From the sequence record PZ445521.1: DNA of 64,000 bases, one strand, 5' to 3'. The notes under the pieces were generated by a model that was given only the letters and a program-made list of their open reading frames with translations, did no database searches and was not told the DNA's origin. Numbering within the stretch: the first letter of the stretch is position 1; the number at the start of each line of letters is the position of its first letter. Below, in pieces: positions 8,018 through 54,900 of this stretch. The stretch is from a phage. A program made the translations under genes and the position numbers.

Positions 8018-8046
8018 AAGGGACCTTCGGGTCCCTTTAGTTGTTT
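8018..8046 (+). terminator. rho-independent terminator after gene 23
   Basis: hairpin aagggaccttcgggtccctt followed by T-rich tract. Confidence 0.75.
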
Positions 8047-9374: not shown

Positions 9375-9398
9375 AAAGGGACCTTTCGGTCCCTTTTT
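9375..9398. terminator. bidirectional terminator between gene 24 (+) and rnlB (-)
   Basis: hairpin aaagggacctttcggtccctttt with A/T runs on both sides. Confidence 0.7.
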
Positions 9399-9400
9399 AT

Positions 9401-10405
9401 TTAGCTCACCAACTCAATCCAAGCTGGACGAAGTACATCTTGTACCATTTTAACTAATTCCTTCTTAATCAAAGAAGGATTATCTGCTTGAGTTAGAGTA
9501 ATACCTTCACGAGAAGTTTCTTCCAAAATATCTTGAACAGTTAGCCCCATCACCTTTCCAAAATCCTTTGGACCAATTTCGCCAATTTTAGAAATAACGT
9601 TATTTACCCGGTTCAGTGTAACGTAACAAGCTAAAATTCCCACCAATTTGTTATCAGCTTCTGATAGTTCAACTTTAGCTTTAATAGGCTTATCAGACTT
9701 TTTCTTTTCACTAAATTTGGAATTCTTGCATTTAATCGCTACACGATTGCGATTAGGCAGCCAAGAAGGATAACAAGGTTTCAATACATATCCTTCAGCG
9801 GTAAATACTTCGCCTTTTGCTTCGGCATTCCAAACGCATTTATTTGCATCAACTAATCCAGCATGGTCTACTGTAAAATTATAATCTTGGACGACAGAAT
9901 CTAAATCATTTGGCAATTTAATAAGCTCTTCAAATTTACCGCGACCTAAAAGTGGAGCCATTTTAAATTTAAATGTATTGCAGAATGATTCCATCATATA
10001 ATCGTCGACATAAGTCACATCGCCACTTTCTGTAGTGACAATAATGTCAAATACATAAAAATCTTTATCACCATAATCGACATTCTTCTGAATGCCAGGT
10101 CCAGCGAATTCGCCAAAGACTTGATAAGATACAACCGCTGAGGTTTCCATAATATCTTGTACTGCTTTAATGGAATCAGCGTAATTCTTTAAAATAATTT
10201 CATACCCAAAGAAATCTTCAGCAGGAAGAATAGGACCAGTACGTTTAGCGCAAGTTACTTTATCACGCTCAATAATCAATGAGAAATTTGTGCCGTGAAT
10301 CTTTTCACGAGCTACCCACTCCCCACCAGTCAATCCTAAGCTATAAAGTTTTTCAATAAATTTAGAGTTGTAATGATTTTCAAGACTGCTATACTTTTTA
10401 AACAT
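9401..10405 (-). CDS. rnlB: RNA ligase 2
   Basis: 334 aa as T4 Rnl2; nucleotidyltransferase Lys motif KIHGTN. Confidence 0.92.
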
Positions 10406-22893: not shown

Positions 22894-22897
22894 CAAT

Positions 22898-22915
22898 GGG
22901 GACCTTTCGGTCCCC
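22898..22915. terminator. bidirectional terminator between gene 54 (+) and the minus-strand early block
   Basis: hairpin ggggacctttcggtcccc with T tracts. Confidence 0.7.
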
Positions 22916-22921
22916 ATATTT

Positions 22922-23212
22922 TTATTTACGGAATGAAATGAAAGCAGAAACTGAAGCAACTAAACTGTCTTCAATATAAACTTCAATTTTTACCGGAGCT
23001 TCTGACTCGAATTTACCTGTTACTACACCTTGGAAAATACTTTCAGTTTGTTCTGGCTTTGAAAAATTTTCAGAAGGAAAAATTCCGAACTTTTTATCTG
23101 TTCCAAAAATTTTGATAAATTCATCATAAACTGCTTCATTAAAAGCATTATCAGCAGGAATAACGCCTTCAACTACAAGTTCTTGACCCAAAAAGCGCAA
23201 AGAAGATTTCAT
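22922..23212 (-). CDS. hypothetical protein downstream of the alt genes
   Basis: 96 aa ORF; preceded by the early promoter element at 23221-23274. Confidence 0.65.
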   Translation of the reverse strand: MKSSLRFLGQELVVEGVIPADNAFNEAVYDEFIKIFGTDKKFGIFPSENFSKPEQTESIFQGVVTGKFESEAPVKIEVYIEDSLVASVSAFISFRK

Positions 23213-23220
23213 TTTGTGTT

Positions 23221-23274
23221 CCTCATGTTATGTCAGTAAGACTACTATAACACAACACGAGGGACTTGTAAACT
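23221..23274 (-). promoter_or_regulatory. T4-type early promoter plus leader, copy 1 of a 54-nt repeat
   Basis: minus strand GTTTAC, 18-nt spacer, TATAGT, then GAGG RBS; 53/54 identical to 38623-38676. Confidence 0.7.
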
Positions 23275-25330
23275 ACATCTTGAACTTTTTAGACATTCCG
23301 TTGATGTTAACCAAAGAAGCCAAGATTTGAGAAACTTCGTTTTCCTCTTCTTTTGATTCTTCTACAAGGAATTGATTAAATCCAGCCATTGGACGAACTT
23401 CACCAGTTTCCATTAAATGGTCGCCATCATATACTGATTCTTCTAATTGTTCAGAAGGAGGAACGATTGTACCTTCGATTAGATACTTGTTATAAGCAGT
23501 TTCTTTCATAAAGTACGTACTTACTTTATTAATCTTCAGTAAAATTCCACGCGGTAGAATAACTTCAGCTTCTGATGGAAATCCTGATAAATGACCTGGA
23601 ACGATAACTTTGATTCGCTCAGCTCCTTTAATTACCATACCCACGCTAGTTTCAGCATCTTCATTGGCATATGTAGAATGACTACCCATATGCATTAAAT
23701 CTTCTGCATCAACGGAACCTTCTCCTTCGCCAGAAAATACTGCGCCGGAATCATCTAGAGCCATATAGTTTTTACCATGCTCACCGAAGATATTTGGTTT
23801 AAGTGATGTCGATACGAAGTTCTTGAAATAGAACATTTTGTTTTCAATGTTATGACGCAAAGTTTTAAAGGTAACTTCTTGTCCACGGTAAAGTGTAGTT
23901 CCTGGAGGAAGAACTGATCCTTTGGCAAAGGCAGAATCTAACGTCTCGATGTGCTTAATAGCTCTTTCCATGTATTCTTCACGGGTAGAATCTGGTTTAC
24001 CCAAAAGGAACGAGTTCATTTCAACATATGAATCTGCACAATAATCTTCAATTACATCAGATTCAGCCTGAGTCAGTCCTTTTGGAGTTACTTCGGTGCT
24101 TGCGTATTCATATGCCTGAGCAGCAGATTCATTAATCAATTTATAAATGCCATTCATTACAAATTGAATAATAGCTGTCTTTTCATCTGATGCAGCTTTA
24201 GAACCTTTAACTAAATCATTGATAATTTTCTTAATAACATCAAAGCTATTAGAAATATTAATGTCAGCAAGATCGCTTAAAATTTTATCAGTTTTATAAT
24301 CAAAGAATTCTTTATTCTTTAAATATTCTTGAGAACCTTGATATGTTATATCGCTCTGCAGCTTGATAGATGGATCGCGTAAACGTGCATGGGCTAATGC
24401 AATATGATTTCGGAAACTTTCTAGTTCATAATCATTAGATTTAAAACGAGAAGCACTTCTCATACCACCGATAGCTCCTTTGCTGAAGTTTGAACCAATC
24501 TGGATAACGCCAGAGTTCATTGGTCCTTCTGCTTTGTATACCGGAACTTTAGATTCAAACTCTTGATATTTCTTGGCAGCGAAGCTATCGCCTTGAAGTG
24601 AAGCATCGACAGTAGAATATTGAGCTTGTGCTGCTAATCGACGACTAATTTTAGTTTTTTGAATAACCGCTTGATCAGTACGTTTATCATTTTCCAAAGC
24701 AATAGAAGCAGCAACTGCGACAGCTTTAGGAACAGCATTACCTGTTTTAACGTCTACATAAACATCACCGACCTTTGATTCAACTTTTGTGAATAGCTCT
24801 GTTGAAATAGGAGGTACACCTGGAATGTCTTCTAAATTGGCATTTTTACGGTAAACCATAATATATGCATACTTTTTATCATAGTCCCAGATTTCCTTTA
24901 AAAGAACATATCGACCTGCTCCTTTAGTACGCACTAAACGGTCAGCAATAACTTGCATTTGACGAGCAGCGCCATTTGTTTTACTCTTTAGTACGCGGAA
25001 TAGGCATGCGTCAATTTTATACTGCTTCATTGTTTGAAGAGCAGTATCAAAAACAGCGTTAATGACGCCAATTGGATTTCCACCCAAGTTTTTAAGCTTA
25101 ACCAGCGATAATTTCTCGTTGACACCTATCATTACGATATGCATCATTTTATCGCCTGGCTTAACGTTTTTATTTGTATCACCACCTGAGGTGTATGTAC
25201 AAAATCTAAATCCAGGAAGCACGCTTTCTTCACCGGCTTGAATAGCAAAAATTTGTGGTATTTTATGCTTAGGATTTAAGTTAACAACCGGCGCCGAAGC
25301 GCCGTCAAATAATTCTGTAATAAGTTCCAT
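23273..25330 (-). CDS. Alt-family ADP-ribosyltransferase paralog (copy A)
   Basis: 685 aa; N-terminal about 220 aa highly similar to copy B; ART-like YRGQ, FVSTSL and SEAEVILP motifs. Confidence 0.85.
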   Translation of the reverse strand: MELITELFDGASAPVVNLNPKHKIPQIFAIQAGEESVLPGFRFCTYTSGGDTNKNVKPGDKMMHIVMIGVNEKLSLVKLKNLGGNPIGVINAVFDTALQTMKQYKIDACLFRVLKSKTNGAARQMQVIADRLVRTKGAGRYVLLKEIWDYDKKYAYIMVYRKNANLEDIPGVPPISTELFTKVESKVGDVYVDVKTGNAVPKAVAVAASIALENDKRTDQAVIQKTKISRRLAAQAQYSTVDASLQGDSFAAKKYQEFESKVPVYKAEGPMNSGVIQIGSNFSKGAIGGMRSASRFKSNDYELESFRNHIALAHARLRDPSIKLQSDITYQGSQEYLKNKEFFDYKTDKILSDLADINISNSFDVIKKIINDLVKGSKAASDEKTAIIQFVMNGIYKLINESAAQAYEYASTEVTPKGLTQAESDVIEDYCADSYVEMNSFLLGKPDSTREEYMERAIKHIETLDSAFAKGSVLPPGTTLYRGQEVTFKTLRHNIENKMFYFKNFVSTSLKPNIFGEHGKNYMALDDSGAVFSGEGEGSVDAEDLMHMGSHSTYANEDAETSVGMVIKGAERIKVIVPGHLSGFPSEAEVILPRGILLKINKVSTYFMKETAYNKYLIEGTIVPPSEQLEESVYDGDHLMETGEVRPMAGFNQFLVEESKEEENEVSQILASLVNINGMSKKFKM

Positions 25331-25333
25331 GAT

Positions 25334-27430
25334 TTATCCTTGAACGAACTTGTAAGGCATGTTTGTAATATCTATGCAAGACGCAATAATTCCAAGAGAT
25401 GATTCTACTTTCTGTTTAACGTTTGATGAAACAAATGATGCAAAGTCAACTCTGTCTTCTATTTCAATATCACCTGTCATTGCAACCAATTCACCAGTTT
25501 CCATTAAATGGTCTCCATCATAGATTACCGATTCGGTGAGCTCTTCCGTGGTCATAACTTCAGCTTGAATGAGTTTTGTATTATTAGATGTTGTTCCGTC
25601 ATTATTAGAAGCATCAGTTATTTTATTAACTTTGACCATCAATCCACGCGGTAGAATAACTTCAGCTTCTGTTGCTATTCCGAGACTTCCTGGATATACA
25701 ACATTAACTTTATGAGCTCCATCAATTGCCCATCCTATTTGAACTTTAACGTATTCAGGATTTTCTTTATACGCTCTTATTTCGTTTGGATTAATAGTTA
25801 TTCCTTCTTCATTTTTATCAACTGTTAATTCATTGCGAGCTTCTGGTTCTAAAAGACCAATACCAGCATGTGTAATTCCAAAACGTCCAAAAATGATAGG
25901 AGTTAAAGAAGTAGATACAAAATTTCTGAAGTAGAACACTTTATTTTTAACTAACGCTTCATATATAGGAGCAGTCATACTTTGAGCACGATAAACTGTA
26001 ATGCCTTCTGGTATACGGTCACCATTTTCAAAAGCTGAATCTAAGTTATTTATAGCAGATTCAATTTCTTTTTCACTCATTACATCATATCGTTCTGGAT
26101 TGTAACGACCTAAAAGAAGATTATTGATGTCAGTATATCCTGAACCGCAATATTCTCTAATGCCACGCTTTTGTGATGGAGTATATTTAGAACCATCGCG
26201 GGCAATAGTAATATCAATCATTGGACCAGCACCAATTCCAGAAAAACTGTAAATCATTCGTTTGAGGAATTTAGTTTTTGCTGCGTTCCAGGAATTTTTA
26301 GTTATTTCTTCCCAGACTTCATCTGGTTGTCCTTTACGATTTTTATTATGATTAGCAAGCCATTTATCTTTATAATCTTCAAAGAATTGATTTACAGCTG
26401 CTGCGTATTTCTCTAAACATTTTATTGAAGTAGTTGGTTCATTTTTAATTGCATTAAAAATTACTTCTTTAATTTTTTCTGAAACTTCACCGACCCGACT
26501 CAGCGGAAAGAATTTATAATCATAGTGAAGTTCATCTGCCGTTCCTTCAGCAATAATTTTTGCTGCCTTTGTTTTAGAAGCTAATGAATTAATTCCAATT
26601 TTCATTTCTTCTGCTTCGGGAATTAAAGGTGCAGTAGCTGGTTTATTAAAATTAGCTGCTGTAGATTCATACTTCTGGAATAATTCACTTTCAAATCTAG
26701 AAGATTCCAATGACTGACTTTGTGCAATTGCTCTACGGGAAATTTTAACTTTAACGATTACGGCTTGGTCAGAACGTTTATCATTTTCTTGTGCAATTGA
26801 TGCTGCAATTGCTTCATTTTTAGTTACCTGATTTCCGGTATCTTTGTTGATATAAACATCACCAACCTTCGATTCAACCTTAGTAAAGAGTTCAGTACTA
26901 ATTTCTGGAACTCCTGGAATGTCTTCTAGTGATACGTTTTTACGATGTATAAGAATATATGCATACTTTTTATCGTAATCCCAGAGTTCCTTAAGAAGGA
27001 CGTATCTGCCACCTGAACGACTACGGATAAGTCTATCAGCAATAAGTTGAATTTGTCGAGCTTGACCGGCGGTTTTAGACTTAAGAATGCGTAGCATACA
27101 TGCATCAATTTTATACTGACGCATAGTTTGCATTGCAACGGTAAATACTGAATTGATGTAATTAATAGGACTCGGTCCAAGACCCTTTAATTTAGCAATT
27201 GACCCCTTTGCAGTTAATGTAAAAGGAACGATATGCATCATTTTATCGCCCATTTTTAAATCGCGATTAGTATCACCTCCAGATGTATAGGTACATAAAC
27301 GAAAGCCTGGTTGTTCAATTGCATCATCAACATGAACTGAAAAAATTTGTGGTATTTTCTTCTTTGGATTTAAGTTTGTAATCGGAAGAGTAGTATCTTC
27401 GTCAAATAATTCTGTAATGAGTTCCATCAT
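25334..27430 (-). CDS. alt: Alt ADP-ribosyltransferase (copy B, the one matching my memory of T4 Alt)
   Basis: 697-698 aa (two adjacent Met codons); YRAQ, FVSTSL and TEAEVILP motifs. Confidence 0.88.
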   Translation of the reverse strand: MMELITELFDEDTTLPITNLNPKKKIPQIFSVHVDDAIEQPGFRLCTYTSGGDTNRDLKMGDKMMHIVPFTLTAKGSIAKLKGLGPSPINYINSVFTVAMQTMRQYKIDACMLRILKSKTAGQARQIQLIADRLIRSRSGGRYVLLKELWDYDKKYAYILIHRKNVSLEDIPGVPEISTELFTKVESKVGDVYINKDTGNQVTKNEAIAASIAQENDKRSDQAVIVKVKISRRAIAQSQSLESSRFESELFQKYESTAANFNKPATAPLIPEAEEMKIGINSLASKTKAAKIIAEGTADELHYDYKFFPLSRVGEVSEKIKEVIFNAIKNEPTTSIKCLEKYAAAVNQFFEDYKDKWLANHNKNRKGQPDEVWEEITKNSWNAAKTKFLKRMIYSFSGIGAGPMIDITIARDGSKYTPSQKRGIREYCGSGYTDINNLLLGRYNPERYDVMSEKEIESAINNLDSAFENGDRIPEGITVYRAQSMTAPIYEALVKNKVFYFRNFVSTSLTPIIFGRFGITHAGIGLLEPEARNELTVDKNEEGITINPNEIRAYKENPEYVKVQIGWAIDGAHKVNVVYPGSLGIATEAEVILPRGLMVKVNKITDASNNDGTTSNNTKLIQAEVMTTEELTESVIYDGDHLMETGELVAMTGDIEIEDRVDFASFVSSNVKQKVESSLGIIASCIDITNMPYKFVQG

Positions 27431-27482: not shown

Positions 27483-27668
27483 ATAATCTATTGGTAAGAG
27501 AGTACGATATATTTCAAACTTTGGACCTTTTTCATAGGCATCAAATGTTTCTGTGAATTTATTATAAGCATATGCATCTATAAATTCAATCATGATTTGT
27601 GATACAGAAGTAGAAACATCTCCACCTTCTTTTTGAGCCACGACAATTGTTTCTAAGTAAGCTTTCAT
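27480..27668 (-). CDS. hypothetical protein
   Basis: 62 aa ORF between ligase and alt; start overlaps ligase stop. Confidence 0.55.
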   Translation of the reverse strand: MKAYLETIVVAQKEGGDVSTSVSQIMIEFIDAYAYNKFTETFDAYEKGPKFEIYRTLLPIDY

Positions 27669-29128
27669 AAACCAGTTACCTCATGAAAATCACCAAATAC
27701 ATCCTCGAATGTATTAGCTTTAGTTTTATCTTCACGTAAACGAATCGCAATCGGAAGAAATAATTTAACGTAATCAGTGCGGCCATCGGATTTTAACCAA
27801 CCGTTGCATTCGCACTCTAGAATTTTTCCAATATAATAATTTTGATTTTCCATAATGCGAGTACGGTCAAGTTCATGTGATTTTACGCCGGCTTTATCTT
27901 TTAAGCCTGAACCGGCATTTACCTTAATTTTTCCACACTCTGATTCAAGAATGAAACCACCTGCTTTAGTAGGGTCTTTACGGTGAGGATAAATTCCTAC
28001 AATTTTTAAATCAACATCAATTACTTCTTTAAATTTATAAAGATTTTTTGAACGAGCATTTTCCCATAATCCATCGATATTTTTGAGAATAATACCTTCA
28101 AGACCTTGGTCAATATACTTTTTGTAAATTACCTTAGCTTCATCTAGGTTATTTACTACTTGGTTTTCAATTAAAATTACTTTATCATAGCCTGATGTCA
28201 TTTGTTCTAGTTTAGAAAAACGTACATCATATTTTAAACGAAATGCTGGAAGACCATATATTTCTACTAATGGAACATAATCCCAGACCTGAAACTTCAT
28301 GCATTGTGCTTCTTTTTCAGAAATGGTTCCCTTTAAAGATTTATTGGCGATGCCATTAGATGCAGTACGTGATTCAGCTACTTCGGCGAATTCTTTAGCT
28401 TTACTAATTTCAGGATAAGCATCAAAAAGAAAATCTAGGCCTTCTGGTTCCTTTTCAACTTGCTCATGGTATACCAATTCGCCATCAATTAACACACCTT
28501 CTGGATGAATCTGGCGGGCTTCAGCAGTCATTTTGATTAACTCTTCCTTAAGAAGATCTAATCCTAGATATTCATTGCCAGCTCGTGATAAAAGACGAAC
28601 ATCATCTAATTCATCACCTCTGACTTCGGCAAAGCACCGAGCTCCATCAGCTTTTAACTGGGCAAAGGCTGGAAATTTGATATTCTTATTAATGCCTTTT
28701 TCATCATAAGAACTTGCAAGCATTTGAGGTTGTTCAGGAATTAAACCTGGCCAAACTTTGTTCGCAATAGATACTGAAGCGCCACATTCAAGGTCTCGCA
28801 TCATCACTCGACGCAAAACTTCAACATCATCTTTTTTACCATCGGTGATATATCCAGATAATTCCTCAATTGCCGCATTTCCGGTCAATTTCCGAGTAGC
28901 TAACGTGAATTCAATGAAGTCAAGCATATCGGTAAGAGTCAACATTCCAAAACTCTGGGTAGCAATACCAGATTTAGGCCATTTCTTGATATAATACTGC
29001 AACCCACGAGAATAAGTCAGACGATATACTCGTTTAAGCAATTCATTATCTTTATTCTTTTCAAGAATTGCTTGCTTCTGCTTAGTTGAACCAATAGATG
29101 CTATTTCGTTCAGAATTTTAAGAATCAT
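27665..29128 (-). CDS. 30: ATP-dependent DNA ligase gp30
   Basis: 487 aa as T4 ligase; recognised N-terminus. Confidence 0.94.
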   Translation of the reverse strand: MILKILNEIASIGSTKQKQAILEKNKDNELLKRVYRLTYSRGLQYYIKKWPKSGIATQSFGMLTLTDMLDFIEFTLATRKLTGNAAIEELSGYITDGKKDDVEVLRRVMMRDLECGASVSIANKVWPGLIPEQPQMLASSYDEKGINKNIKFPAFAQLKADGARCFAEVRGDELDDVRLLSRAGNEYLGLDLLKEELIKMTAEARQIHPEGVLIDGELVYHEQVEKEPEGLDFLFDAYPEISKAKEFAEVAESRTASNGIANKSLKGTISEKEAQCMKFQVWDYVPLVEIYGLPAFRLKYDVRFSKLEQMTSGYDKVILIENQVVNNLDEAKVIYKKYIDQGLEGIILKNIDGLWENARSKNLYKFKEVIDVDLKIVGIYPHRKDPTKAGGFILESECGKIKVNAGSGLKDKAGVKSHELDRTRIMENQNYYIGKILECECNGWLKSDGRTDYVKLFLPIAIRLREDKTKANTFEDVFGDFHEVTGL

Positions 29129-31790: not shown

Positions 31791-31816
31791 TTTTGTTCTC
31801 CGAGATGTTTAATTGC

Positions 31817-31856
31817 GGTACAGGTATATAATATCATATCCTGTACCAAAGTAAAC
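31817..31856 (-). promoter_or_regulatory. early promoter with hairpin in the spacer
   Basis: minus GTTTAC, 17 nt, TATTAT; 8-bp inverted repeat ggtacagg/cctgtacc. Confidence 0.6.
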
Positions 31857-32229: not shown

Positions 32230-32315
32230 TTTATTCTCCTTTGTTTGTGTAAAATAATACTATCACAAAGGAACCATACTGTAAACAACTTTGTGCAATC
32301 TTTGGAAAATAAAAA

Positions 32316-33201: not shown

Positions 33202-33537
33202 TCACTTATAAAGACACGGAATAGCTTTATAGTGACAGGTAACGAATTTTTGTTTAATTTCTTTTGGCTGCTTAAGACCCAGAGCTACAAAAGGATGCGG
33301 AACATTTCGAATTTGACCAACTGGAAGAGAAGTCAAATCACCAACTTCGCAGAAACCTTCAGGAACATCAGGACCGACAGAGTGAACTACACACAGTTCA
33401 GGAACTTCACCTTGAACACGTTTACCGATGATAAGTCCTGATTCTGTAACTTCTTCATCACCGGCTTGTGCAGGTTCAGAAACTAAAATAACATATTCAC
33501 CGACAGCACGAATTGGTAGCTGTTGTACTTCAGACAT
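33202..33537 (-). CDS. 31: head assembly co-chaperonin gp31 (GroES-like)
   Basis: 111 aa as T4 gp31. Confidence 0.9.
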
Positions 33538-35318: not shown

Positions 35319-35348
35319 ATAATATCACAACTCTACCACAAAGTAAAC
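35319..35348 (-). promoter_or_regulatory. early promoter with hairpin in the spacer
   Basis: minus GTTTAC, about 18 nt, TATTAT; inverted repeat ggtagag/ctctacc. Confidence 0.6.
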
Positions 35349-37770: not shown

Positions 37771-38120
37771 TTAGAAAGGTCCTGGATGTCTTCTGCGAAC
37801 TTGTTGAAGGAGTTGTTGATTTGTTTTTCAACCAATCCTGGCTTACGAGCCACCACATCCGCCTTCTTTGCATCTTTGCGCAGTTTTTCATTTTCACGCT
37901 CAATAGCAGCAATTGCCTCACGATTTTTATTATTCATCGCATCAATATAATTATACTGAATTCGCAAATTATTTAATGCTAAGGCGTTTTCATTGGCCGT
38001 TTTTGTAATTTCAGTAACTGATGTTTCTAATCTTTCTACCTTATTTTTTAAAATAATAGATGTTCCACCAAATACTATTACAAGTAATAGCAAACCTGCT
38101 GTCGTATTACTTAATTGCAT
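37767..38120 (-). CDS. predicted membrane-anchored coiled-coil protein
   Basis: 117 aa; hydrophobic N-terminal helix. Confidence 0.6.
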   Translation of the reverse strand: MQLSNTTAGLLLLVIVFGGTSIILKNKVERLETSVTEITKTANENALALNNLRIQYNYIDAMNNKNREAIAAIERENEKLRKDAKKADVVARKPGLVEKQINNSFNKFAEDIQDLSK

Positions 38121-38617
38121 AAAGTTTTAATAACCTCTATAATATCGTCTTGAGAAAGACCGTTAATTAAAATATGATGTTCCGCCGGAGATTTAGAAAT
38201 TTTAAAGCATGCCGCAACATCTTCTGCCATATCCGATGCGCTACGATTTGGATTACTAATTCCAAGACGATGTTTTCCCGTTAAAGGATTAACGATAATA
38301 TAGCATTTACAGCTATTGATATGAACATTAGGTTGAGTCTGATTAATGAACACTTCACAATCATACTTAGCGAGTTGATTTTCTAAAAAGACTTTCATCT
38401 CCTCAACTGCATCAGGAAGCATATCACGGGCTTGCTCAAGACGACGATTTCGATATTCTTTAATGGTCGTTTTCCGCTTGACTTGCTTAGCTAAATCTTT
38501 CTTAAGATCGGTGATATATCCAACTCGCCGATTTCCTTTAAATACAGAAATCCCATCTGTAGTATCACCGTATGCTTCAACGACCATTTCAGTAGTAATA
38601 AGCTGCAAATCCATCAT
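38111..38617 (-). CDS. alc: Alc, inhibitor of host transcription
   Basis: 167-168 aa; recognised T4 Alc. Confidence 0.88.
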   Translation of the reverse strand: MMDLQLITTEMVVEAYGDTTDGISVFKGNRRVGYITDLKKDLAKQVKRKTTIKEYRNRRLEQARDMLPDAVEEMKVFLENQLAKYDCEVFINQTQPNVHINSCKCYIIVNPLTGKHRLGISNPNRSASDMAEDVAACFKISKSPAEHHILINGLSQDDIIEVIKTLCN

Positions 38618-38622
38618 AAAGT

Positions 38623-38676
38623 CCTCATGTTATGTTAGTAAGACTACTATAACACAACACGAGGGACTTGTAAACA
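38623..38676 (-). promoter_or_regulatory. early promoter plus leader, copy 2 of the 54-nt repeat (upstream of alc)
   Basis: 53/54 identical to 23221-23274; GTTTAC, 18 nt, TATAGT, GAGG RBS. Confidence 0.7.
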
Positions 38677-38678
38677 AC

Positions 38679-40266
<1,588 letters not shown>

Positions 40267-51995: not shown

Positions 51996-54900
51996 ATGGC
52001 CGAGATTAAAAGAAAGTTCAGAGCAGAAGATGGTCTGGACGCAGGTGGCGATAAAATAATCAACGTAGCTTTAGCTGATCGTACCGTAGGAACTGACGGT
52101 GTTAACGTTGATTACTTAATTCAAGAAAACACAGTTCAACAATATGATCCAACTCGTGGATATTTAAAAGATTTTGTAATCATTTATGATAACCGCTTTT
52201 GGGCTGCTATAAATGATATTCCAAAACCAGCAGGAGCTTTTAATAGCGGACGCTGGAGAGCATTACGTACAGATGCTAACTGGATTACGGTTTCATCTGG
52301 TTCATATCAATTAAAATCTGGTGAAGCAATTTCGGTTAACACTGCAGCTGGAAATGACATTACGTTTACTTTACCATCTTCTCCAATTGATGGCGATACT
52401 ATCGTTCTCCAAGATATTGGAGGAAAACCTGGAGTTAACCAAGTTTTAATTGTAGCTCCAGTGCAAAGTATTGTAAACTTTAGAGGTGAACAGGTACGTT
52501 CAGTACTAATGACTCATCCAAAGTCACAGCTAGTTTTAATTTTTAGTAATCGTCTGTGGCAAATGTATGTTGCTGATTATAGTAGAGAAGCTGTAATTGT
52601 AACACCAGCGAATACTTATCAAGCGCAATCAAATGATTTTATCGTACGTAGATTTACTTCTGCTGCACCAATTAATGTTAAACTTCCAAGATTTGCTAAT
52701 CATGGCGATATTATTAATTTCGTTGATTTAGATAAACTGAATCCACTTTATCATACAATTGTTACTACATACGATGAAACGACTTCAGTACAAGAAGTTG
52801 GAACTCATTCCATTGAAGGCCGTACATCGATTGACGGTTTCTTGATGTTTGATGATAATGAGAAATTGTGGAGATTGTTTGACGGGGATAGTAAAGCACG
52901 TTTACGCATTATAACGACTAATTCTAATATTCGTCCAAACGAAGAAGTTATGGTATTTGGTGCGAATAACGGAACAACTCAAACAATTGAGCTTCAGCTT
53001 CCAACTAATATTTCTGTTGGTGATACTGTTAAAATTTCCATGAATTACATGAGAAAAGGACAAACAGTTAAAATCAAAGCTGCCGGTGAAGATAAAATTG
53101 CTTCTTCAGTTCAATTGCTGCAATTCCCAAAACGTTCAGAATATCCGCCTGAAACTAAATGGGTAACTGTTCAAGAATTAGTTTTTAACGGTGAAACTAA
53201 TTATGTTCCAGTTTTACAGCTTGCTTATATAGAAGATTCTGATGGAAAATACTGGGTTGTACAGCAAAACGTTCCAACTGTAGAAAGAGTAGACTCTTTA
53301 AATGATTCTACTAGAGCAAGATTAGGCGTAATTGCTTTAGCTACACAGGCTCAAGCTAACGTCGATTTAGAAAATTCTCCACAAAAAGAATTAGCAATTA
53401 CTCCAGAAACATTAGCTAACCGTACTGCTACAGAAACTCGTAGAGGTATCGCAAGAATAGCAACTACTGCTCAAGTGAATCAGAACACCACATTCTCTTT
53501 TGCAGATGACCTTATCATCACTCCTAAAAAGCTGAATGAAAGAACAGCTACTGAAACTCGCAGAGGTGTTGCTGAAATTGCTACGCAGCAAGAAACTAAT
53601 ACAGGAACCGATGATACTACAATCATCACTCCTAAAAAGCTTCAAGCTCGTCAAGGTTCTGAATCATTATCTGGTATTGTAACTTTTGTATCTACTGCAG
53701 GTGCTACTCCAGCTTCTAGCCGTGAATTAAATGGTACGAATGTTTATAATAAAAACACTAATAATTTAGTTGTTTCACCTAAAGCTTTGGATCAGTATAA
53801 AGCTACTCCAACACAGCAAGGTGCAGTAATTTTAGCAGTTGAAAGTGAAGTAATTGCTGGACAAAGTCAGGAAGGATGGGCAAATGCGGTTGTAACGCCA
53901 GAAACGTTACATAAAAAGACATCAACTGATGCAAGAATTGGTTTAATTGAAATTGCTACGCAAAGTGAAGTTAATACAGGAACTGATTATACTCGTGCAG
54001 TCACTCCTAAAACTTTAAATGACCGTAGAGCAACTGAAAGTTTAAGTGGTATAGCTGAAATTGCTACACAGGTTGAATTCGACGCAGGCGTCGACGATAC
54101 TCGTATCTCTACACCATTAAAAATTAAAACCAGATTTAATAGTACTGATCGTACTTCTGTTGTTGCTCTATCTGGATTAGTTGAATCAGGAACTCTCTGG
54201 GACCATTATACCCTTAATATTCTTGAAGCAAATGAGACACAGCGTGGTACACTTCGTGTAGCTACACAGGTCGAAGCTGCTGCAGGAACATTAGATAATG
54301 TTTTAATAACTCCTAAAAAGCTTTTAGGTACTAAATCTACCGAATCGCAAGAAGGTGTTATTAAAGTTGCAACTCAGTCTGAAACTGTAGCTGGAACGTC
54401 AGCAAATACTGCTGTATCTCCAAAAAATTTAAAATGGATTGCGCAGAGTGAACCAACTTGGGCAGCTACTACTGCGATAAGGGGCTTTGTTAAAACTTCA
54501 TCTGGTTCAATTACATTCGTTGGTAATGATACAGTCGGTTCTACCCAAGATTTAGAACTGTATGAGAAAAATAGCTATGCGGTATCACCATATGAATTAA
54601 ACCGTGTATTAGCAAATTATTTACCGTTAAAAGCAAAAGCTGCTGATACAAATTTATTGGATGGTCTAGATTCATCTCAGTTCATTCGTAGGGATATTGC
54701 ACAGACGGTTAATGGTTCACTAACCTTAACCCAACAAACGAATCTGAGTGCCCCTCTTGTATCATCTAGTACTGCTACGTTTGGTGGTTCAGTTTCGGCA
54801 AATAGTACATTAACTATTTCTAATACTGGAACTGCAACTCGTCTGATTTTTGAGAAAGGACCTCAAACTGGAACTAACCCAGCACAGACGATGACTATTA

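Follow-up and report, generated by a model that had tools for sequence, protein, structure and literature searches.

Near-identical early-promoter cassettes upstream of alt.-3 and alc in Tequatrovirus contain a hairpin predicted to mask the ribosome-binding site in read-through RNA

Two intergenic gaps on the minus strand of a phage genome, roughly 15 kb apart, are filled by almost the same 54 nucleotides, which raises the question of what was duplicated here and what the duplicated element does. In the window, by which we mean the whole 64,000-nt stretch of record PZ445521.1 analysed here, the two blocks lie at 23220–23273 and 38622–38675 and match at 53 of 54 bases. The shared sequence is GTTTACAAGTCCCTCGTGTTGTGTTATAGTAGTCTTACT[G/A]ACATAACATGAGGA, the single difference falling at block position 40, where copy 2 has A (window 38636). 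A first-pass annotation had reported a 54-nt near-identity with one differing base, and re-alignment bears this out at the full length claimed; its coordinates, 23221–23274 and 38623–38676, are shifted by one base and, taken literally, add a second mismatch (23274, T, versus 38676, A). A pattern search of the window allowing up to three mismatches returned exactly two matches, with 0 and 1 mismatch to the query, where 0 matches are expected in shuffled sequence. The identity breaks off about 3 nt before GTTTAC on the upstream side and directly after GAGGA on the downstream side. Since BLASTP found no similarity between Alt.-3 (96 aa) and Alc (168 aa), the two downstream proteins, the repeat is restricted to the non-coding block; on the same empty comparison we dropped a candidate extension of homology into the coding regions (ELVVEG / EMVVEA).

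Each copy occupies the entire gap from an upstream stop codon to a downstream start region. Copy 1, in the alt/alt.-3 intergenic space, spans the -35 hexamer through the Shine-Dalgarno (SD) sequence. Directly upstream is an alt paralogue of 685 aa (23273–25330, minus strand), and downstream is a 96-aa ORF (22922–23212, minus) homologous to alt.-3, with 96% nucleotide identity to the T4 gene. The alt TAG stop codon ends on the G of the GTTTAC in copy 1 (23273), an overlap that had been described correctly. The alt.-3 unit ends at a GC-rich hairpin (22896–22917), a bidirectional terminator that also ends gene 54 on the plus strand, giving the order alt paralogue, copy 1, alt.-3 and terminator, facing gene 54. 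Copy 2, in the rnlA/alc intergenic space, has its -35 hexamer beginning 3 nt past the stop codon of rnlA (gene 63; 38679–39803, minus), the gene directly upstream. It is followed by alc, a 168-aa ORF for the inhibitor of host transcription (38111–38617, minus), whose annotated start in T4 corresponds to the second ATG here, at 38614; the order then continues from alc to pseT.3 and onward, with no terminator nearby. Gene mapping thus places one copy before the alt.-3 homologue and the other before alc, as first proposed. A terminator scan between the upstream gene and the cassette called none at either site (alt/alt.-3 or rnlA/alc). Gene 30, for DNA ligase (27665–29128, minus), and gene 31, for a GroES-like co-chaperonin (33202–33537, minus), lie between the two copies.

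Several other features of the window were recorded alongside this neighbourhood. Two full-length alt paralogues stand in tandem on the minus strand, at 23273–25330 (685 aa) and 25334–27430 (698 aa). T4 alt.-1 and alt.-2 together match the opening ~116 codons of the 685-aa paralogue (24983–25330) plus its last ~20 nt, a pattern which implies that T4 has an internal deletion of ~1.7 kb, equivalent to window 23293–24982; the deletion ends just upstream of cassette copy 1. The GC hairpin GGGACCTT(T)CGGTCCC occurs three times (8020–8045, 9378–9403 and 22899–22924), its third copy being the bidirectional terminator between gene 54 and alt.-3. Elsewhere, the 20-nt sequence ATCATCACTCCTAAAAAGCT is found exactly on the plus strand at 53514–53533 and 53622–53641, 108 nt apart, with a third copy of 85% identity at 54303–54322 (plus); a peptide repeat encoded by a tail-fibre gene is its probable source.

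What kind of element fills the two gaps? The motifs that the first-pass annotation had listed, namely GTTTAC, an 18-nt spacer, TATAGT and GAGG, are all present in both copies. By the T4 convention each reads GTTTAC-N18-TATAGT with a 25-nt leader and a GAGG SD; in the sigma-70 register each reads TTTACA-17-TATAGT with a TG extended -10, matching 10 of 12 positions. The -35 hexamers lie at 23268–23273 (copy 1) and 38670–38675 (copy 2), and the TGT plus TATAGT of the extended -10 and -10 at 23244–23252 and 38646–38654, all on the minus strand. We took the 37th nucleotide from the G of GTTTAC as the predicted transcription start, an offset that reproduces the T4 record note 'early promoter Pe133295' (the cd.2 promoter) and that places putative starts at 23237 and 38639 (both minus), with 25-nt leaders. 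Several GenBank records annotate a promoter at the cassette by similarity.

The expression data for T4 agree with this assignment. According to T4 omics data (PMC9697503 supplement), both the RNA and the protein of alt.-3 and of alc are early, alt, alt.-1 and alt.-2 are middle RNAs, and the Alt and RnlA proteins are late. Taken over from the T4 orthologues to the present phage, these classes imply that the expression class switches exactly at each cassette, from middle or late in the upstream neighbours to early in alt.-3 and alc. They are likewise consistent with the co-regulation of the two genes that had been suggested from the repeat, and the early promoter, short leader and GAGG ribosome-binding site (RBS) read from the motifs hold up. 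We therefore consider both copies very probably T4-type early promoters. T4 early promoters have been described as -35/TGn/-10 'uber' promoters with an UP element (Hinton 2010, PMC2988021). The cassette resembles them in having GTTTAC(A), TGn and TAnnnT at T4 spacing, directly before early genes. It may depart from them in its UP region (-40 to -60), which shows no clear A/T enrichment, the upstream 21 nt being ~67–71% A+T, near the genome average, and consisting of the coding ends of alt and rnlA; its spacer also bears an anti-SD sequence, and the two sites are 98% identical where 61–82% is usual among other early-promoter blocks. That background arises from a strong extended early-promoter consensus, and against it the alt.-3/alc pair is a true outlier.

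Two further promoter-like sites were seen in the window. Within the 3′ end of rnlA, ~30 nt upstream from copy 2, the sequence TATAAAAA (38700–38715, minus) differs at a single base from the T4 late-promoter box TATAAATA. Record MZ726795 annotates it as promoter-like, and a transcript starting there would include the whole copy 2 hairpin described below. At 31807 (plus) and 31856 (minus) there is a palindromic early-promoter-like site that reads on both strands, GTTTAC...GGTACAGG...CCTGTACC...GTAAAC.

The pair is not peculiar to the present phage. The window belongs to Tequatrovirus, and both regions are 100% identical to Shigella phage JK38. In T4, too, the 54-nt pair stands before alt.-3 and alc, with its one mismatch at the same position, except that G and A are swapped between the sites relative to the window. 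A blastn search of the 54-mer against 50,697 phage records found 999 places in 500 records, all Tequatrovirus-like and at identities of at least 90%; the cassette thus occurs in two copies per genome across Tequatrovirus and nowhere outside the genus in that search, and a scan of IMG/VR for further copies gave only 7 loci. This phage thus shares the pair with T4 and with about 500 related genomes, a point that the first-pass annotation lacked. In a sample of 10 genomes, the two copies within a genome differed at 0–5 positions (up to 5/54 in T6 and others), and 12 positions varied in the alt.-3 copy versus 5 in the alc copy. Purifying selection is the best explanation for the retention of both copies since the duplication.

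The block also holds a layer that the first-pass description, 'promoter plus leader', did not include. Its spacer sequence, AAGTCCCTCGTGTT, is not the one usual in early promoters and includes an exact anti-SD. Folded as RNA, the 54-mer forms an 18-bp hairpin of -22 kcal/mol (z -5.39), and 0 of 200 shuffles were as stable. Its 5′ arm, CCUCGUGUUGUGUU (23249–23262 in copy 1, minus), is part of the promoter spacer, ahead of the predicted start, and includes the anti-SD CCUC; the -10 box is held in the loop or at the top; and the 3′ arm, GACAUAACAUGAGG (23221–23234, minus), is the leader, with the SD GAGG at 23221–23224. The predicted fold pairs the spacer CCUC with this GAGG. At the alc site, pairing of AAGUCC with GGACUU lengthens the helix past the shared 54 nt (block positions 7–57, window 38619–38669, minus, with the SD at 38623–38626), and the minimum free energy (MFE) becomes -24.4 kcal/mol (z -6.13). 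Rfam gave no match across the whole window.

The geometry of the promoter gives this fold a possible meaning. The predicted +1, at block position 37, falls within the 3′ arm of the hairpin, from which it follows that RNA begun at the cassette's own promoter would lack the 5′ arm and could not form the hairpin; the leader of such RNA is predicted to be essentially unstructured. Opening the region from the SD through the AUG is computed to cost 13.3 kcal/mol in read-through RNA and 3.2 (alc) or 4.3 (alt.-3) kcal/mol in promoter-initiated RNA, and the predicted probability that the SD is paired in the long transcript is 0.98–1.00. We propose that the cassette is a compact T4-type early-gene control element of PeSL type (promoter early stem-loop, discussed below) that fills the intergenic gap and also provides a hairpin of 18–22 bp. 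Transcripts begun at its promoter would start within the 3′ arm, lack the 5′ arm and leave the RBS open; transcripts reading through from alt or rnlA would include the whole hairpin and have the RBS masked. Translation of alt.-3 and alc would then be tied to the early promoter and would cease when early promoters are shut off. On the modelled structures and energies, we moderately favour this reading, in which the hairpin masks the RBS in read-through RNA and alt.-3 and alc are translated from RNA of the cassette's own early promoter.

A plainer reading, in line with the first-pass annotation, is that only a promoter and leader were duplicated, with self-complementarity that is incidental, or a by-product of promoter constraint, and without action at the RNA level. 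It draws on the well-supported motifs and the early expression of both genes in T4, and on the extended consensus, which makes T4 early blocks 61–82% alike in any case. Variation within the genus does not test the helix: in a within-Tequatrovirus comparison, 144 of 500 shuffles did as well, the variation being too small to be informative. A few natural variants (14C, 19C/A, 29A, and 50A alone) break a hairpin pair. Against this plainer reading stand the spacer AAGTCCCTCGTGTT itself, unlike the usual early-promoter spacer and containing an exact anti-SD, a hairpin far more stable than shuffles in five genera (z -5.4 to -7.1), and arms that differ among those genera yet remain complementary. We regard it as quite unlikely.

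The comparison between genera rests on Alt.-3 and Alc homologues found well outside Tequatrovirus, from which we took the rnlA–alc gaps of nine other genera and the alt/alt.-3 gaps of seven. An early-type promoter is present at both sites in all compared genera, which implies an ancient origin for these promoter positions. The Tequatrovirus design of the alc site, with the SD paired to an anti-SD right after the -35 and the -10 box in the loop, is found again in Karamvirus, Moonvirus, Jiaodavirus and Dhakavirus. The arms in these four differ (UCUCCAUUUGGUU / AACCAAAUGGAGA, UCCUCGUCAG / CUGAUGAGGA, UCUCCUCAU / AUGAGGAGA), the folds have z from -4.4 to -7.1, and the RBS-opening difference is 8–17 kcal/mol. 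In a register-aware alignment of the outer helix, 90.5% of cells were paired versus 63.6 ± 3.4% in shuffles (0/500), 10 of 11 pairs had changed on both sides, and the covariation score was 0.685 versus 0.06–0.14 with the partner slid, in an alignment that was fitted by hand from MFE folds, spans about five independent lineages and leans towards structure. With 13 alc cassettes aligned by plain MAFFT, RNAalifold found no consensus structure, a result that we attribute to register shifts between genera. On these modelled folds, four or five further genera have the design of the alc site with arms of other sequence, which is covariation. The Marfavirus version is weaker (UCCUUG / CAAGGA); in Tegunavirus and Kanagawavirus the hairpins are just as strong and end right before the SD; and Mosigvirus shows little structure, with masking weak or absent. 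Considering these exceptions, the role of the hairpin may be more general and not require the SD.

The Tegunavirus and Kanagawavirus hairpins, which exclude the SD, bring in another reading: that the hairpin acts mainly on upstream transcripts, as an attenuator or terminator, or as a 3′-end stabiliser or RNase III-type processing site for the alt and rnlA mRNAs, with SD pairing as a side effect. Given the shortness of the intergenic gaps, any long hairpin necessarily comes near the SD. PeSL elements, defined as an upstream stop codon followed by a promoter, a stem-loop overlapping the -10 box, an SD and an ATG (Arbiol 2010, PMC2839356), offer a precedent for this reading, since the RB49 PeSL stem-loop reduced downstream lacZ about as much as the rrnB T1 terminator (PMC2839356). 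The presence of -10-spanning hairpins at most early promoters of the window also speaks for it. The evidence to the contrary is that neither hairpin is followed by a U-tract and the terminator scan calls nothing there, and that the outermost conserved covarying pairs are the SD/anti-SD pairs in five genera, despite a change in SD type (GAGG, GGAG, AAGG). A main role on upstream transcripts thus seems to us rather unlikely, if somewhat less so than a promoter and leader alone.

The cassette does have the structure by which PeSL elements are defined and the sequence by which T4 early promoters are defined. It differs from PeSLs as published (PMC2839356; Comeau 2014, PMC4122927), whose stem-loops were assigned a terminator or attenuator role and are often G/C-rich: the cassette lacks a U-tract, and its stem pairs specifically with the SD. 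It also occurs as only two near-identical copies 15 kb apart, with essential genes between them rather than dispensable ORFans.

A significant hairpin spanning the -10 is present at most other early promoters of the window (-35 at 31856, 32286, 35348, 47071 and 48064, all minus), the z values lying between -2.2 and -5.7. In the one at 32286, which precedes the 30.8 homologue, a spacer anti-SD UUCCUUUG pairs with the SD CAAAGGAG, and the predicted SD pairing probability is 1.00 in read-through RNA versus 0.27 in own-promoter RNA; at 35348, the homologue of T4 Pe133295, the corresponding values are 0.73 and 0.31.

RBS masking of the kind that we favour for the cassette has a close precedent in T4. 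The genes e, soc, 49 and I-TevI have an RBS-masking hairpin with an internal promoter (McPheeters 1986; PMC3014915). As predicted for the cassette, the SD of these genes is sequestered in the long RNA, and their own transcripts, which lack the 5′ arm, are translated. The internal promoter in those genes is late (TATAAATA) and masking blocks early translation, whereas the cassette has an early, sigma-70-type promoter and its predicted masking would block middle and late translation. On the predicted folds, then, the cassette works like the e/soc/49/I-TevI class without being a member of the class as described. In the open literature that we searched, which excluded the T4 genome review of Miller et al. 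2003, there was no description of RBS masking at early promoters.

How did the same cassette come to stand at two sites? The alt.-3 sites of the outgroup genera share a different cassette, in which the spacer forms a small hairpin, CACCACAAGGAnGUGG, and there is no more than a short anti-SD close to +1; in most of them the opening-energy difference is 1.5–5 kcal/mol. The Gaprivervirus alc block has AAGCCCCUC in common with the Tequatrovirus block, whose 5′ arm resembles GUGUACAAGCCCCUC of that Gaprivervirus block, and the helix reaches beyond the shared 54 nt in the alc context only. The alc-type architecture, the likeness to Gaprivervirus alc and this extension of the helix together point to alc as the source site, and a copying of the alc cassette onto alt.-3 in an ancestor of Tequatrovirus is probable. 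In such an event, with the alc cassette ancestral, a patch of ~54–57 nt would have replaced an older early-promoter cassette in the alt/alt.-3 gap. The ends of the patch fall in motifs that are common to all such cassettes, GTTTACA and (C)ATGAGGA. Sequence identity alone was tried as a guide to the donor site and abandoned, as the Tequatrovirus block matches every outgroup block to about the same degree (33–40/54, the level also seen with unrelated blocks). Concerted evolution of the two sites across genera was also considered and set aside: in Mosigvirus the alt.-3 and alc blocks score 0.79, versus 0.76 between unrelated early-promoter blocks (background range 0.65–0.82).

Near-identity over 54 nt could also mean that the copies are kept alike as active recombination substrates, through gene conversion, PeSL-type mini-circles or a 15-kb deletion, and that this is their main significance. 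The swap of G and A between the sites in T4 relative to the window fits such exchange, as does the occurrence of variants 16A, 27C and 40A at both sites in different genomes. These positions lie in a bulge of the hairpin or tolerate wobble pairing, and recurrent mutation accounts for the shared variants. Differences of up to 5/54, in T6 and others, argue against strict homogenisation, and differences between paralogous copies (0–5) are not larger than those between orthologous ones (0–9). Ongoing gene conversion is possible but not needed: as a required explanation we rejected it, given the bulge or wobble positions of the variants at 16, 27 and 40 and the up to 5 nt by which copies differ. 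We infer that the copies have drifted slowly, and mostly independently, since the duplication.

Repeats of this kind had also been proposed to support a deletion of the ~15 kb between them. Genes 30 and 31, both essential in T4, lie in this interval and would be lost. Among the 500 genomes, neither a deletion junction nor a duplication junction, each marked by a chimeric cassette, was found (0/500), in which the cassette again differs from the recombination role ascribed to PeSLs, and for viable phage the proposal is not upheld. About 50 bp of homology is enough for recombination in T4 (Singer 1982, as cited in PMC2839356), and PeSL pairs in RB49 and phi1 form mini-circles, at ~1e-5, that are detectable by inverse PCR; together, these make rare exchange between the two copies plausible. 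At most, recombination between the copies could yield a rare defective molecule or a circle. The repeats are not a source of viable rearrangements, and recombination as the main significance of the pair is very improbable.

As found, the promoter pair is ordinary, being already present in T4 and in sequenced Tequatrovirus genomes. The predicted masking hairpin, its covariation at the alc site and the probable transfer to alt.-3 add a modest new layer. If masking does occur, a classic T4 mechanism would extend from the late genes e, soc, 49 and I-TevI to early genes. Masking would also give a cis-acting reason for the early-only expression of Alc and Alt.-3, which no terminator separates from later-expressed genes, and it would account for the conservation of all 54 nt, with the spacer, and for their having been copied as one unit. 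More tentatively, and with somewhat less confidence than doubt, early-promoter hairpins may form a general, portable module of promoter plus translational insulator, of which the alc cassette is one, copied whole to alt.-3 in Tequatrovirus. Were this so, a gene with such a module would be translatable only from its own early promoter, by way of the pairing between the spacer anti-SD and the SD; early genes could then follow immediately on middle or late genes with no terminator between them, and the module would contribute to the rapid and poorly explained shut-off of early protein synthesis.
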